From assembly GCA_043800335.1 (NCBI GenBank), contig JAZDNC010000049.1, positions 1 through 63,028 on the forward strand: a stretch of 63,028 nucleotides of DNA. The letters run 5' to 3'. The notes beneath the pieces are model-generated. The model worked only from the letters and a program-made list of their open reading frames with translations. It did not search any database and was not told the origin of the DNA. The position numbers were made by a program, and so were the translations under genes. This DNA comes from Chloroflexota bacterium (GTDB lineage Bacteria > Chloroflexota > Dehalococcoidia > Dehalococcoidales > JAZDNC01). Positions 37,229 to 41,453 of the stretch are shown piece after piece; position 1 is the stretch's first letter, and each line of letters opens with the position of its first letter.

Positions 37229-38263
37229 CTACCTGACGTATGCCTTCCTCATGACTACCGATAGTTCCGCCAGAAGTCTGAGCGCCGTCTCCGCCGCCTC
37301 TTCGCTCAGGGTCGCCAGCCCGCAGGATGGGGTGAGCAGCCCGTGCTCGGCAAGCGACTCAAAGCGAATACCCTTGCGGGTAAAGGGGGCGATGGCTTCC
37401 TCCAGCCGGTCTTTGAGACTGGAGACGGTCTCCCTTTTAAGCTCGTCCTCGCCGTTGGGCACAATCCCCCAGGCGACCGCTCCGCCCCTCTGGATGAATT
37501 TGCCCACCTCAGCCGGGTAGAGACTGAAAGGCTGGGCGTAGTTATAGGCATCGAAGCTCAGGATGTCGGTTGAAGTGGAAAGGAGTAACTGCCAGTCGGT
37601 ATTGCCGCAGCAGTGGATGCCCTTGAGTCCCCTGATGCCTCCGAACACCTCTTCCAGAAGCTTCTGGGCCTTCTCTTTAGAAATCACCACGTAGGCAGAG
37701 CCGAGGGAGACCAGGTAAGGCTCGTCAACAAAGACAATGGTGTTCTTGAAGACCTTGGCCAGCTCCCTCTCCTGCCAGCCGGCTTTGAGGCGCAGGAGCT
37801 TGGCGGTGAGGTCGGCAAGGTTCTCATCGTAGATTAGGGGCTGACCCCTCCTGTCTTTCACCGTCAGTCCGAAGCTGACCGGACCCGTGACCTGTCCCTT
37901 GACTGCTATCGGCGAGATGCTGTTCTGGGCGAGGAACTCATACAGCCCTTCGGCATACTCCCGGCTCACCGGGAACCGGTCGACATTGTTCTCAAGATAA
38001 GTGATGTAAAGCCGTTCCATATCCCTGTCCGAGATGCCGCTCGGGTCGACATAGATTCTCTTCTCGTCTTCTTCTATCACCACACCGGGCAGTCCCTCGC
38101 TGAACTGGACGTACATGTTCTCTCGGAACGTGCGCCGGGGTAGCTGGGGCCAGCAAGGGATTTCTTTAAGATACTTTGCCACCAGCTCACAGGCGGTTCT
38201 GGCACTGGTATGGGGCAGACTGCCAATCATGGTGGGAAGTAAACCAAATCTGGTGTCAGGCAC
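37229..38263 (-). CDS. Zn-dependent thiol methyltransferase of the MetE-C-terminal/URO-D-like superfamily (candidate core methionine synthase)
   Basis: 344 aa. GSLPH near the N-terminus, IHCCGN (His-x-Cys) and PSCGL (Cys) as Zn-ligand-like motifs. Sits inside the SAM-cycle cluster. Confidence 0.5.
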   Translation of the reverse strand: MPDTRFGLLPTMIGSLPHTSARTACELVAKYLKEIPCWPQLPRRTFRENMYVQFSEGLPGVVIEEDEKRIYVDPSGISDRDMERLYITYLENNVDRFPVSREYAEGLYEFLAQNSISPIAVKGQVTGPVSFGLTVKDRRGQPLIYDENLADLTAKLLRLKAGWQERELAKVFKNTIVFVDEPYLVSLGSAYVVISKEKAQKLLEEVFGGIRGLKGIHCCGNTDWQLLLSTSTDILSFDAYNYAQPFSLYPAEVGKFIQRGGAVAWGIVPNGEDELKRETVSSLKDRLEEAIAPFTRKGIRFESLAEHGLLTPSCGLATLSEEAAETALRLLAELSVVMRKAYVR

Positions 38264-38342
38264 AGTAAACCTCTGGGTCTCAAAATTTATAGAGGGAGTT
38301 TAAGCGGGAAGAAGCCCCTCTGTCAACCTCTGTATTTACACT

Positions 38343-38466
38343 GGTGTCATTCCTGCGGAAGCAGGAATCCAGAAGAGGAAGAGGGGAGTGGATTGTCGGG
38401 TCAAGCCCTTCAGGGTGAACCCGACAATGACATATGAGAACGGACTTGCTCGCCCCTCGCAATGAC
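38343..38466. repeat. Intergenic repeat cluster (units B, C, A)
   Basis: tgtcattcctgcggaagcaggaatccag, then gattgtcgggtcaagcccttcagggtgaacccgacaatgaca, then ...ctcgcaatgac. Confidence 0.9.
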
Positions 38467-38469
38467 AAC

Positions 38470-39354
38470 TTACTTTATATACCTGCCGATGATGGGCTTG
38501 AGCTTCCGCTTTAGCTCAGGCGGGATTTTCTCCCTTGCCGTAACGAATGCCGTCTTGAGGGCGTTCTGGCACTCACACTTACGAGTCTTGGGGACTTTAC
38601 CAACCGCCAGCTTGATGATTTGCTTCGCCGTCTCGACATTGCGGTTCATGCAACTGATGATAATATCAACCGTTACCGGCTTCTCCCGCGCCAGCCAGCA
38701 GTCGTAGTCGGTAACGAGAGCAATACTGGCGTAGCAAATCTCGGCTTCACGGGCGAGCCTGGCTTCGGGGAGCACTGTCATGCCGATGATGTCCGCCCCC
38801 CAGGACTGGTAGAGCCGGGACTCAGCCTTGGTGGAGAAAGCGGGACCCTCCATGGTGACGAACGTCCCGCCACGGTGCACCGTCGCCCCCGCCTTCTTGC
38901 CGGCATTGTAGAGAATTCGGCTCAGCTCCGGGCAGAAAGGCTCAGCGAAGGAGATGTGCGCTACCAGTCCGCTGCCGAAAAAGGTATTGACTCTACTCGT
39001 GGTGCGGTCAATGACCTGGTCGGGGATGACCAGATCGCCCGGCTTTATATCTTCCTTATAGCTGCCGCAGGAGTTGATGGCGATGATGTGCTCCACCCCC
39101 AGCGTCTTAAAGGCGTACATATTGGCTCTCTGCGGGATTTCCGAGGGCATGTAGACGTGTCCCCGCCCGTGCCGGGGGAGAAAGGCGACGCCCGTCCCCT
39201 CTAGGCTCCCGATGATGAAGCTGTCCGAGGGCTTGCCGAAGGGGGTGTCGATGGCGACCTCCTGAATTTGGGTCATGCCCTCAATCTGGTAAAGCCCCGT
39301 TCCGCCGATACCGCCGAGATTAGCCCTGGGTTCACCATGAATGGGTTGCGGCAT
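38470..39354 (-). CDS. mtnP: S-methyl-5'-thioadenosine phosphorylase
   Basis: GGIGGTGLY, FLPRHGRGH, GMT..PEA.LARE. TAGGAGG SD upstream. Confidence 0.88.
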   Translation of the reverse strand: MPQPIHGEPRANLGGIGGTGLYQIEGMTQIQEVAIDTPFGKPSDSFIIGSLEGTGVAFLPRHGRGHVYMPSEIPQRANMYAFKTLGVEHIIAINSCGSYKEDIKPGDLVIPDQVIDRTTSRVNTFFGSGLVAHISFAEPFCPELSRILYNAGKKAGATVHRGGTFVTMEGPAFSTKAESRLYQSWGADIIGMTVLPEARLAREAEICYASIALVTDYDCWLAREKPVTVDIIISCMNRNVETAKQIIKLAVGKVPKTRKCECQNALKTAFVTAREKIPPELKRKLKPIIGRYIK

Positions 39355-39491
39355 GAAAAGAACCTCCTAAGTTCACTATCAGAAGTGCGATAATTTACAA
39401 AAGTATAAGTTATCTTAAAACTGCTTCTCTAAGCTATGAAATAATAACGGATTAGCGACAATGAGTTCGCAGGGGTTATCTCCTTAAGTGG

Positions 39492-39704
39492 CTACATTTT
39501 TCGGAGTCCTTCGGTCTCTTCTTCAAGCTTTTCGCTGAAAGGTATGTCCACGACTGAGCAGCTAACATAATTACTATCAAATACGTGCTTTTCGGCGTAG
39601 GCACGTTTACCCTTGATGCGGTCAGGGATTTCTACAACATATTCAACTTTCTCAACTCTCAACATTCTCTCATATCTGGTTAGGATGTAATTTGAACTAC
39701 TCAT
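39492..39704 (-). CDS. Hypothetical 70-aa protein (second gene of the AT-rich cassette)
   Basis: ORF in AT-rich DNA. Its start overlaps the upstream ORF's stop by 8 nt. No family recognised. Confidence 0.5.
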   Translation of the reverse strand: MSSSNYILTRYERMLRVEKVEYVVEIPDRIKGKRAYAEKHVFDSNYVSCSVVDIPFSEKLEEETEGLRKM

Positions 39705-40197
39705 TTTTCCCTTCTTTCCGACCTGCTTCTTGGTTTTTCCACTTAGCGAAATCCGACCACATTTGTTTTATGAGTTTCTCCGATGCAAGTGTAGACCTGC
39801 TTCCAACCTCAGGTATGGTCAGTTCCGAAGTGCTTCTGGATTCCAACCTATATAGGAAAATCGGTGTAGTTAAGGTACAACATTTTAGAAATTCCTCTGC
39901 ATCAAATAGTCTGAAGAACCAATCATTCAAATTATTGCCCTGACCCCTGCATACCAAAAAGAGGTAGTTTTCTTTATTACAAACCGCTTGGAACATCTCG
40001 GTTAACATAACCGTTCCAAAGAAACTACCCTCTTCTTTAGAAGAATATTTTATTTCAATATAGAGTAATTTGCCATCTTTATCTGCAATTAAATCGCAGC
40101 TCTGATTTCTAGCTGGTCTTACGTTGGTAAAACCGTTTTTCTCCAACCACTCTTTACATTTGGTCTTAGCCAGTGTGTCAGAAACTACTCTTGCCAT
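39697..40197 (-). CDS. PD-(D/E)xK nuclease-fold protein, DUF3883-like N-terminal domain
   Basis: CDLIADKDGKLLYIEIKYSS (D...E-x-K) followed by GTVMLTEMFQAV..KENYLFLVC. The C-terminal half is unassigned. Start taken at ATG 40197 (the track uses TTG 40218). Confidence 0.6.
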   Translation of the reverse strand: MARVVSDTLAKTKCKEWLEKNGFTNVRPARNQSCDLIADKDGKLLYIEIKYSSKEEGSFFGTVMLTEMFQAVCNKENYLFLVCRGQGNNLNDWFFRLFDAEEFLKCCTLTTPIFLYRLESRSTSELTIPEVGSRSTLASEKLIKQMWSDFAKWKNQEAGRKEGKNE

Positions 40198-40286
40198 ATG
40201 TCTGCCTTCTAAGTGCAAACATATGTTAGAACAACTTTAAGTCCGTGTCGAGTGGGTTGAACGGTTGGGCAGTATTTCTTAGGTTG

Positions 40287-41453
40287 TTAAGGTTTAATCT
40301 GGGTTACTATCCTCTTAATCTCCACCCCGTAAGGCGGTCTTATTATACCCTTTTCGGTGATGAATGCGGTGATAAGACGGTGCGGGGTAACATCAAAAGC
40401 CGGGTTCTCCGCCCTCACTCCCACGGGCGCTACCCTGACCCCCATCTGGTGCGTCACCTCGTCCTCGCTCCTGAACTCAATCGGTATCTCATCCCCGCTC
40501 TTTAGCTCCGGGTCAAAGGTAGAGGTCGGCGCCGCCACATAGAAGGGTATTTTATGCGCTTTTGCCAGCACGGCGAGGGAGTAGGTGCCAATCTTGTTCG
40601 CCGTATCGCCGTTTGCCGTGATTCGGTCTGCCCCCACGATGACGAGGTCAATCTTCTTCTCTCTCATGACGTAGCCTGCCATGGAGTCGGTGATGAGCGT
40701 GACCGGGACGCCGGCGCCCTTCAGTTCCCAGGTGGTGAGGCGCGCCCCCTGGCAGAGGGGACGGGTCTCGGTGGCGTAGACTTTTATTTTCTTCTCCTGC
40801 TCGTGGGCATAGATGATGACGCCCAGCGCCGTCCCGTAGCCGGTGGTGGCGAGTGGCCCCGTGTTGCAGTGGGTGAGGATGGTGGCATTATTCTTGAGTA
40901 GCTTTGCCCCGAACTTACTCAGTTTGCAGGTGGACTCGGTCTCCTCCTTATGGATTTGGCTCGCCTCGGCGGTAAGAGCGGACTTGATACTGGAGACACT
41001 TTTGGCTTTTTGGGCTACCTGTTCCATCCGGCTCACGGCGAAGAAGAGGTTCTTGGCGGTGGGCCGCGTTTTGGCGATGGTATTAGTAATTTTCTTAAGT
41101 TCCTTGAGAAAGGCGTCTTTCGTTTCTGCCTTAATCTGAAGCGCCCCTAGCAAGATGCCATAGGCGGCGGCAACCCCGATGGCAGGGGCACCCCTGACCT
41201 TAAGTCCTTTGATGGCTCTGGCTACTTCACGATAGTCGGTGATTTCAAGATAGACCTCTTTTGCTGGCAGCTTCGTCTGGTCAATCAGTCTCAGGCGGTC
41301 ACCCTCCCAGATTACAGGTTGCGCTCCGATTTGACACCTCCCGTCTTTTGCTGTGCTTTCTCCCAGTCCCGTCGGTAAATCTCCATCAGGACAAAGCTGA
41401 GCCCGTCTTGAACCATTGTGGTATAAGGCTTGAAGCCCGCTTTTTTGAAGCAT
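40287..41453 (-). CDS. mtnA: Methylthioribose-1-phosphate isomerase (eIF-2B alpha/beta/delta family); start unresolved
   Basis: IWEGDRLRLIDQTKLP, VRGAPAIG, TRP..QGARLT..EL, VGADRI..NGD.ANKIGTY. ATG 41453 would overlap the GNAT gene by 142 nt. Confidence 0.85.
   Translation of the reverse strand: MLQKSGLQALYHNGSRRAQLCPDGDLPTGLGESTAKDGRCQIGAQPVIWEGDRLRLIDQTKLPAKEVYLEITDYREVARAIKGLKVRGAPAIGVAAAYGILLGALQIKAETKDAFLKELKKITNTIAKTRPTAKNLFFAVSRMEQVAQKAKSVSSIKSALTAEASQIHKEETESTCKLSKFGAKLLKNNATILTHCNTGPLATTGYGTALGVIIYAHEQEKKIKVYATETRPLCQGARLTTWELKGAGVPVTLITDSMAGYVMREKKIDLVIVGADRITANGDTANKIGTYSLAVLAKAHKIPFYVAAPTSTFDPELKSGDEIPIEFRSEDEVTHQMGVRVAPVGVRAENPAFDVTPHRLITAFITEKGIIRPPYGVEIKRIVTQIKP

Follow-up and report, generated by a model that had tools for sequence, protein, structure and literature searches.

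A two-gene cassette of foreign composition between mtnA and mtnP

The 63,028-nucleotide stretch of contig JAZDNC010000049.1 analysed here (assembly GCA_043800335.1, Chloroflexota bacterium, order Dehalococcoidales; hereafter the window) carries two small co-oriented open reading frames (ORFs) on its minus strand (39492-40197), which lie between the methionine-salvage genes mtnA and mtnP and code for a predicted PD-(D/E)xK nuclease and a small partner protein (Table 1). Both flanking genes score above the NCBIfam equivalog thresholds. The partner gene starts, with an ATG, inside the nuclease gene, and the resulting 8-nt overlap (39697-39704) points to translational coupling of the two genes. 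We set the nuclease start at the ATG at 40197, which matches the start of all its homologues, in place of the TTG at 40218 given by the mechanical ORF list. Over positions 39300-40350 the content of guanine plus cytosine (GC) is 0.37-0.42, against 0.52-0.61 (about 0.58) in the flanks, and the GC content at third codon positions (GC3) is 0.40 and 0.44 in the two genes of the pair, while mtnA has a value of 0.66 and mtnP one of 0.76. An earlier reading of this stretch, made from the letters and a list of ORFs only (the sequence-only reading), had described an AT-rich insert of two co-oriented ORFs with an 8-nt stop/start overlap between mtnP and mtnA, and both the insert with its deviating composition and the overlap are present as described.

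The nuclease and its Hjc-like core

Searches with the larger protein bring it to the edge of several families without placing it in any of them. In Pfam it scores 20.0 bits with Hjc (cut-off 21.1; E 6.6e-4) and 19.0 bits with NOV_C/DUF3883 (PF13020; cut-off 22.1; E 1.5e-3), is also just sub-threshold with PDDEXK_5, and with the NCBIfam Hjc model NF040854 it attains 12.2 bits against a threshold of 70. A profile built from 43 homologues (57-70% identity) retrieved Pyrococcus Hjc as its sole match in the PDB. The AlphaFold2 (AF2) model of the protein (predicted local distance difference test score, pLDDT, 83.8; predicted template-modelling score, pTM, 0.80; residues 120-140 of low confidence when modelled alone) recovered archaeal Hjc as the best match in a Foldseek search of the PDB, followed by the nuclease domains of SPARDA and the type II restriction enzymes SwaI, HincII and EcoRV (probability 0.95-1.0); TM-scores against Hjc range from 0.45 to 0.58, the best value, 0.58, being normalised to the target. 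The residues D35, E48 and K50 are invariant in the 43 homologues, as are the motifs GTVMLTE and YLFLVCRG, and the D/E/K motif is also kept in a solitary homologue with 43% identity that is described below. The model and these conserved residues indicate a PD-(D/E)xK nuclease with an Hjc-like core of restriction-endonuclease-like alpha-beta-beta-beta-alpha-beta topology, extended by a family-specific C-terminal hairpin and helix, which by the family thresholds would belong to neither the Hjc nor the DUF3883 family. The sequence-only reading had proposed a restriction-endonuclease fold for this protein from the motifs CDLIADKDGKLLYIEIKYSS and GTVMLTEMFQAV, both of which are found in the larger ORF; the fold and the conservation of the D, E and K residues in homologues hold, and its assignment to the DUF3883 type does not, Hjc being the closer family. 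For the C-terminal part of the nuclease we found no match to anything known.

The partner protein

The 70-residue partner has no match in Pfam, NCBIfam or PADLOC and no meaningful one in PHROGs, so that, with the PDB searches, the earlier statement that the C-terminal half of the nuclease and the entire partner resemble nothing recognisable is borne out. A profile search of 1.84 billion representatives yielded only 19 clusters at 50% identity, all of 35-141 aa, and a word-indexed search retrieved 233 partner proteins of 68-89 aa. In the AF2 model, built on the smaller of two partner alignments, two long beta-hairpins are arranged around one helix (pLDDT 96, pTM 0.61). Foldseek searches with this model found no analogue in the PDB (best E-value 2.9), and among viral models nothing stronger than weak similarity to small, uncharacterised proteins of phages; the predicted fold appears to be one without a solved analogue.

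Strict pairing, selection and phyletic spread

Public metagenomes contain at least 136 homologues or clusters of the nuclease at 57-70% identity and at least 233 clusters of the partner. A partner homologue lies directly downstream of the nuclease in every close locus, including 20 out of 20 distinct complete ones, and an intact nuclease without a partner was found in none of these 20. Among 21 distinct complete loci in total, both genes are intact in 19, one (L028) combines a frameshifted nuclease with an intact partner, and one (L027, 5992-6462) carries the solitary homologue mentioned above, which comes from a Cytophagales metagenome-assembled genome (MAG), overlaps the start of thyA, has no partner and keeps the catalytic motif. 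The co-occurrence of the two genes elsewhere, on which the sequence-only reading depended, is therefore strict in the close loci. Where starts could be called reliably, the arrangement of nuclease stop and partner start varies from an overlap of 8 nt to a gap of 6 nt. Both genes are under purifying selection: the ratio of nonsynonymous to synonymous divergence (dN/dS) is 0.09-0.19 in the nuclease gene and 0.07-0.39 in that of the partner. The partner diverges faster, retaining 54% identity against 66% for the nuclease between the window and its syntenic relative L017.

The nuclease is rare: of 185,579 species representatives, 15 carry it. Its carriers bear diverse labels, namely Dehalococcoidales, Chloroflexi, Anaerolineales, Patescibacteria groups, Pacearchaeota, Methanosarcinales, Gammaproteobacteria MAGs and Cytophagales. 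The GC content of the cassette lies 4-30 points below that of its flanks, and at least 10 points below in all but one of the loci with adequate flanking sequence. The foreign composition and horizontal acquisition suggested earlier agree with this low GC in every genome examined and with the many different contexts in which the cassette occurs. The comparisons indicate that the pair has moved between phyla and between loci, and that it represents a self-contained, horizontally spread two-gene module, 0.8 kb long in the window, of an undescribed family shared by distantly placed uncultivated microbes.

Some copies have other small conflict-type genes, or a tRNA gene, as neighbours. A HicA/HicB pair adjoins the cassette in L001 (5910-6343), and in L010 (1-411) a second Hjc-related endonuclease (PF10107, E 5.6e-8) is located upstream of it. 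On a Pacearchaeota-labelled contig (L025, 4992-5076) the cassette begins 72 nt 3' of a tRNA-Leu gene; tRNA genes are a classic landing zone for mobile DNA.

A disrupted operon, probably of restriction-modification type, around the cassette

In Patescibacteria-type contigs the pair is preceded by a 3'-truncated gene, here termed gene A, and followed by a 5'-truncated beta-class methyltransferase (methylase) gene of the PF01555 family. A metagenome scan for gene A returned 80 loci. In 57 of them a full-length gene A (219-288 codons, mostly 222-247) overlaps a full-length methylase gene (278-340 codons, with an SPPY motif IV) and there is no cassette; in 8 the cassette is situated between an A gene of at most 172 codons and a methylase gene of at most 166 codons; the others are cut by contig ends or otherwise incomplete. 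No locus was found in which the cassette stands beside an intact A or an intact methylase gene, and in all cassette-bearing loci that have a PF01555 gene next to the cassette the match of this gene to the profile begins no earlier than position 36, and the SPPY motif is absent from it. In the longest cassette alleles the cassette replaces gene A from about codon 147 to its end together with some 66 codons at the start of the methylase gene, a loss of target DNA of about 430 bp at insertion. The further truncations of A and methylase are nested and reach stepwise to the cassette borders, with the pair itself intact, which fits an erosion of dead flanks while selection kept the pair. Taken together, the pair appears to derive from a cassette embedded in a disrupted operon of restriction-modification type.

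The cassette and its remnant flanks have had partly separate histories. Between L020 and L010 a DNA identity of 87% stops about 44 nt into the methylase remnant, the synonymous difference being 0.19-0.34 in the cassette and 0.92 in the remnant, and several remnants are nearer to intact methylases (93-97%) than to other remnants; recombination with other alleles has therefore taken place.

Gene A codes for a protein of 222-247 aa in the intact operons with an invariant D46...E89-A-K91 signature and has no match in Pfam, NCBIfam or the PDB. Because it overlaps the methylase gene and possesses this D...E-x-K signature it is probably a restriction enzyme. A relationship between gene A and the cassette nuclease was considered and rejected (hhalign probability 0.1%). 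The operon of gene A and the beta-class SPPY methyltransferase is widespread in groundwater and Patescibacteria-type contigs (L036-L114; for instance L038 3653-5171 and L040 1707-3225) and probably constitutes an uncharacterised type II restriction-modification system. Intact and cassette-disrupted operons alike are enclosed by a bipartite inverted repeat of about 75 nt, with arms of 26-29 nt that are 85-97% complementary (L038 3565-3638 and 5159-5226; L085 217-290 and 1863-1930), and the operon in its entirety may be mobile. The truncated methyltransferase ORFs (Table 1) remain open over 140-215 codons with a dN/dS of about 0.07-0.11, though the catalytic motif is gone and in most of them the start codon too; either continued use of the fragment or recombination with intact alleles would account for the low values.

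Chloroflexota copies and the age of the mtnA/mtnP site

Dehalococcoidia-type genomes carry the cassette in at least five contexts, namely mtnA/mtnP, MetK/PGM, aminotransferase/TrpRS, AI-2E transporter/HicAB-PolA and AMMECR1. These Chloroflexota copies are usually accompanied by a methylase remnant of 160-186 codons, which the window copy lacks. A search for such a remnant in the 137-nt spacer of the window and in the corresponding spacer of L115 gave only noise, and the window as a whole contains a single cassette copy and no homologue of a methyltransferase or of gene A. L016 and L017 share a 1,428-bp unit that is 97% identical and lies in different contexts. About 10 kb of L017, a locus from a Dehalococcoidales MAG, are syntenic with the window, at a DNA identity of 67-69%, in the order mtnA, cassette, truncated methylase of 186 codons (in the place of the window's spacer) and mtnP, and in L115, at 80% DNA identity to the window, the nuclease, partner, spacer and mtnP are arranged as in the window. 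Two relatives, at 80% and 68% DNA identity, have the cassette at this site, so that the insertion is old in this lineage rather than recent. The proportion of nonsynonymous differences between the window and L017 is 0.21 for the nuclease, 0.21 for MtnP and 0.26 for MtnA, and the window copy is equidistant (65-68%) from all Chloroflexota copies. Despite the old insertion the GC3 of the window pair is still low; a conserved position coupled with native composition, which would have spoken against the earlier proposal of foreign origin, is thus seen in its first half only, the site being shared with L115 and L017 and the composition remaining non-native. In L014 (6775-6818) the first 45 or so nucleotides of mtnP trail the cassette at a locus otherwise unrelated to mtnP, and this hitch-hiked fragment shows that an mtnP-adjacent copy has been a donor.

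A GC-rich palindromic repeat, TCCCCCTCNCCTTTGAAGGAGAGGGGGA, stands on both sides of the unit in L016 (1240-1267 and 2735-2762) and recurs in other Dehalococcoidia MAGs, at L017 (1821-1924, 7911-7996 and 9131-9208) and L014 (5833-5891); it may serve as a substrate for recombination that moves the unit. Around the window cassette (37229-41453) there is a weak methionine-synthase-like gene besides mtnA and mtnP, and metK adjoins the cassette in L019 (2854-4125). That two independent landing sites lie near genes of the methionine/S-adenosylmethionine cycle may be coincidence.

The sequence-only reading had further suspected a repeat remnant, and hence a former repeat cluster, at the cassette edge. 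The 9-mer in question, CGACAATGA, occurs 5 times in the window against an expectation of 0.41, its other positions being 1129, 20637, 38422 and 50930. At 1129, 38422 and 50930 it forms part of an intergenic, hairpin-like GGATTGTCGGG...CCCGACAATGA element. At 39456 the bare 9-mer alone matches this repeat family and is missing from the spacer of L115, the nearest relative, so that the suggestion finds no footing.

A conserved control region with a predicted start-codon hairpin

The 60 nt upstream of the nuclease ATG travel with the cassette. Within them a promoter scan identified a sigma-70-like promoter (Table 1), of which the TCGAC and TA..AT positions are invariant upstream of 19 distinct cassette loci from several phyla; we infer that these conserved hexamers are the cassette's own promoter. 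They are followed by an 11-bp inverted repeat whose two arms pair in 96.6% of cells over 19 sequences, with both-sided changes at four pairs and with most one-sided changes G-U compatible. No shuffled control attains the observed pairing, controls slid along the sequence reach 24-56%, and the predicted RNA hairpins have energies between -10 and -17 kcal/mol (z-scores -3.5 to -5.6). The repeat matches no Rfam family, and Rfam searches of the cassette gave only sub-threshold chance matches. As the span from arm to arm varies from 31 to 36 nt across loci and the mismatches are G-U compatible, the data favour a hairpin over a fixed protein operator.

We propose that this hairpin limits translation of the nuclease by sequestering its start codon. 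Since the 5' arm overlaps the -10 hexamer, the full hairpin would form only in read-through transcripts from upstream genes; it could in this way block translation from foreign transcription and tie expression to the cassette's own promoter at any landing site.

Table 1. Positions of the cassette genes, their control elements and flanking features; entries without a locus name refer to the window
Feature	Position	Strand	Remarks
Nuclease gene (predicted)	39697-40197	-	166 aa; core about residues 1-100; catalytic D35, E48, K50; family-specific C-terminal beta-hairpin and long helix
Partner gene	39492-39704	-	70 aa; two long beta-hairpins and one helix (predicted)
Candidate sigma-70-like promoter	40223-40251	-	promoter scan; -35 TCGACA (40251-40246), 17-nt spacer, -10 TAACAT (40228-40223)
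11-bp inverted repeat CATATGTTTGC ... GCAGACATATG	40195-40225	-	5' arm overlaps -10; 3' arm ends in nuclease ATG; Shine-Dalgarno GAAGG in loop
Spacer, partner stop to mtnP start	39355-39491	-	137 nt; carries isolated CGACAATGA 9-mer (39456-39464)
mtnP, S-methyl-5'-thioadenosine phosphorylase	38470-39354	-	downstream host flank, outside cassette; TIGR01694, 320 bits against cut-off 275
mtnA, S-methyl-5-thioribose-1-phosphate isomerase	40287-41453	-	upstream host flank, outside cassette; TIGR00512, 446 bits against cut-off 279
Truncated methyltransferase ORFs	L016 2097-2654; L017 6248-6805; L019 5094-5639; L005 5680-6105; L023 1903-2400; L026 922-1566		

What the pair might do

The reading that we favour, if tentatively, is a toxin-antitoxin-like or defence module in which the nuclease acts as effector under the guard of its partner. 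On this proposal a dimer-type, Hjc-like PD-(D/E)xK endonuclease would cut DNA and be harmful when unopposed, and the co-translated 70-residue protein would be a dedicated binding partner that neutralises or gates it, the whole acting as an addiction or abortive-defence module in the order toxin first, antitoxin second. The layout of two adjacent co-oriented small genes that share an upstream promoter region is that of toxin-antitoxin modules, and the faster divergence of the second gene resembles that of antitoxins, which usually diverge faster. The pair persists at mtnA/mtnP and while neighbouring pseudogenes erode, one copy adjoins HicAB, and in the decayed locus L028 it is the nuclease that is broken and the partner that is spared. 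Several observations weigh against this reading. PADLOC, Pfam, NCBIfam and PHROGs place neither protein in a known toxin or antitoxin family and give no match to a toxin-antitoxin or defence model; with PADLOC-DB v2, the defence-system check that the sequence-only reading had called for, there are zero matches for either protein at E-values up to 1. The nuclease is absent from INPHARED phages, PLSDB plasmids and IMG/VR, and phages, plasmids and viral contigs are frequent homes of addiction modules. The neighbourhood in the window is of housekeeping character with no defence island, and it is less usual for the toxin gene to come first and the antitoxin to be translated by coupling. No DNA-binding domain can be recognised in the partner, and as its isoelectric point (pI) spans 4.8 to 9.1 across homologues it would not be a uniform acidic DNA mimic. 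Finally, because the homologue in L027 is solitary with an intact catalytic motif, the Hjc-like fold of this nuclease would not necessarily be lethal on its own.

Strict co-occurrence and co-selection would serve equally well for an obligate two-subunit nuclease, in which the partner has a structural, specificity or activating role and the complex provides restriction-like defence without a methylase of its own, for instance by acting in a modification-dependent manner or in a structure-specific manner on branched phage DNA. This is the chief alternative, and we regard it as a possible though rather unlikely explanation. The modelled partner, with its extended beta-hairpins, looks like a sheet-completing protein; the low-confidence residues 120-140 in the solo model of the nuclease are in keeping with such a complex, as is the presence of restriction enzymes and the SPARDA effector nuclease among its best structural matches; and the adjacent methylase is inactivated in the cassette-bearing loci, as a modification-dependent nuclease would demand. 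Yet the methylase link is equally explicable by hitch-hiking, PADLOC again offers no match, the module in the window is found outside defence islands, and the only case of decay, in which the nuclease is broken and the partner spared, suits the logic of an inhibitor slightly better. The constant position in Patescibacteria-type contigs and the 57 of 80 related loci that are intact and free of the cassette raise instead the prospect of a homing-type selfish element, whose nuclease would cut the intact operon in the stretch missing from the cassette allele so that repair copies the cassette in and puts the operon out of action, the Chloroflexota copies being secondary. The differing histories of cassette and methylase flank (L020 against L010, and the remnants that are nearer to intact methylases) are as expected for recombination through flanking homology. 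We nevertheless consider homing improbable. A single ancestral insertion with later nested deletions would account for all junctions, without repeated targeting. Genes of the homing type decay after fixation, yet purifying selection acts on the pair in Chloroflexota, where the target operon is missing, and the pair has persisted at mtnA/mtnP through deep divergence; the role of the partner, moreover, would go unexplained.

The resemblance of the nuclease to archaeal Hjc, its best match in both sequence and structure, and the naming of some homologues as 'Holliday junction resolvase' in their source records, might point to a housekeeping Holliday-junction resolvase of the host, or to some other structure-specific repair nuclease, acting with an accessory factor. 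A gene found in only 15 of the species representatives surveyed, in a context that differs in almost every genome and with foreign composition everywhere, is very unlikely to have such a role, and the Hjc thresholds of both Pfam and NCBIfam are missed. The pair might also be what remains, without function, of a decayed restriction-modification island, in accord with its derivation from a disrupted operon in which other genes are visibly decaying; this is hardly credible for a pair with both ORFs intact in 19 of 21 distinct loci, with invariant catalytic residues and with a dN/dS well below 1 in all comparisons.

A more elaborate scenario would make the pair a new kind of selfish element, a cassette of nuclease and guardian that invades and knocks out type II restriction-modification operons by flank recombination, replacing the restriction/methylase junction, carries its own promoter and a start-codon hairpin shielding it from host read-through, and survives by addiction after escaping to other sites such as mtnA/mtnP. 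As a whole we hold this scenario to be a long shot.

Relationship to known systems

The cassette nuclease shares with Hjc (PF01870; PDB 1gef, 2wcw) the topology of the PD-(D/E)xK core, the placement of D...E-x-K and a similarly small core. It differs in its additional C-terminal hairpin and helix of about 65 residues, in the apparently obligate small partner gene and in a patchy, mobile distribution, Hjc being a conserved housekeeping gene. With NOV_C/DUF3883 (PF13020) it has in common the restriction-endonuclease fold and a similar motif arrangement, and one homologue (P0107) carries a precomputed Pfam tag for it; NOV_C typically stands at the C-terminus of large proteins with several domains, whereas the cassette nuclease is a free-standing protein of 166 aa. 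The pair resembles toxin-first type II toxin-antitoxin systems (HigBA, HicAB, MqsRA) in consisting of two small coupled genes with a mobile, patchy distribution, in persisting as a unit and in the faster change of the second gene. There is no homology to them, the partner here is without a recognisable DNA-binding domain, and to our knowledge the toxins of the known toxin-first systems are RNases. The closest literature precedent for a toxin of this fold is Uma2/COG4636, a predicted PD-(D/E)xK toxin family (Makarova et al. 2009, PMC2701414), whose members, unlike the cassette nuclease, are mostly solitary and have no sequence relation to it.

Type II restriction-modification systems have been described as selfish addiction modules (Kobayashi and co-workers, PMC2853133, PMC2993543). 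The cassette is comparable to them as a mobile AT-rich unit with a small PD-(D/E)xK endonuclease, linked to a beta-class methyltransferase in most loci, and tight control of the nuclease would be expected in both. In contrast to these systems, the linked methylase is always truncated and devoid of motif IV, goes with another endonuclease-like gene, gene A, which the cassette has truncated as well, and is missing altogether from the window. To free-standing homing endonuclease genes the cassette is similar as a small nuclease unit at one fixed place in a conserved operon, with signs of recombination in its flanks; unlike them, it has destroyed both host genes, always includes a second gene and is under selection even in the absence of a target. 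Classical homing-endonuclease motifs were not found.

Implications

If our favoured reading is true, the cassette would represent an undescribed family of two-gene modules based on a DNA nuclease and circulating in Patescibacteria, DPANN-labelled archaea and Chloroflexota. Defence and addiction systems have hardly been explored in these lineages, which the libraries of present defence finders leave out. A cassette that disabled a restriction-modification operon and moved on with the wreckage would furnish a concrete and datable conflict between selfish modules, and a testable case of displacement. In the Dehalococcoidales genome from which the window comes, the pair is a long-resident foreign module that leaves mtnA and mtnP undisturbed.

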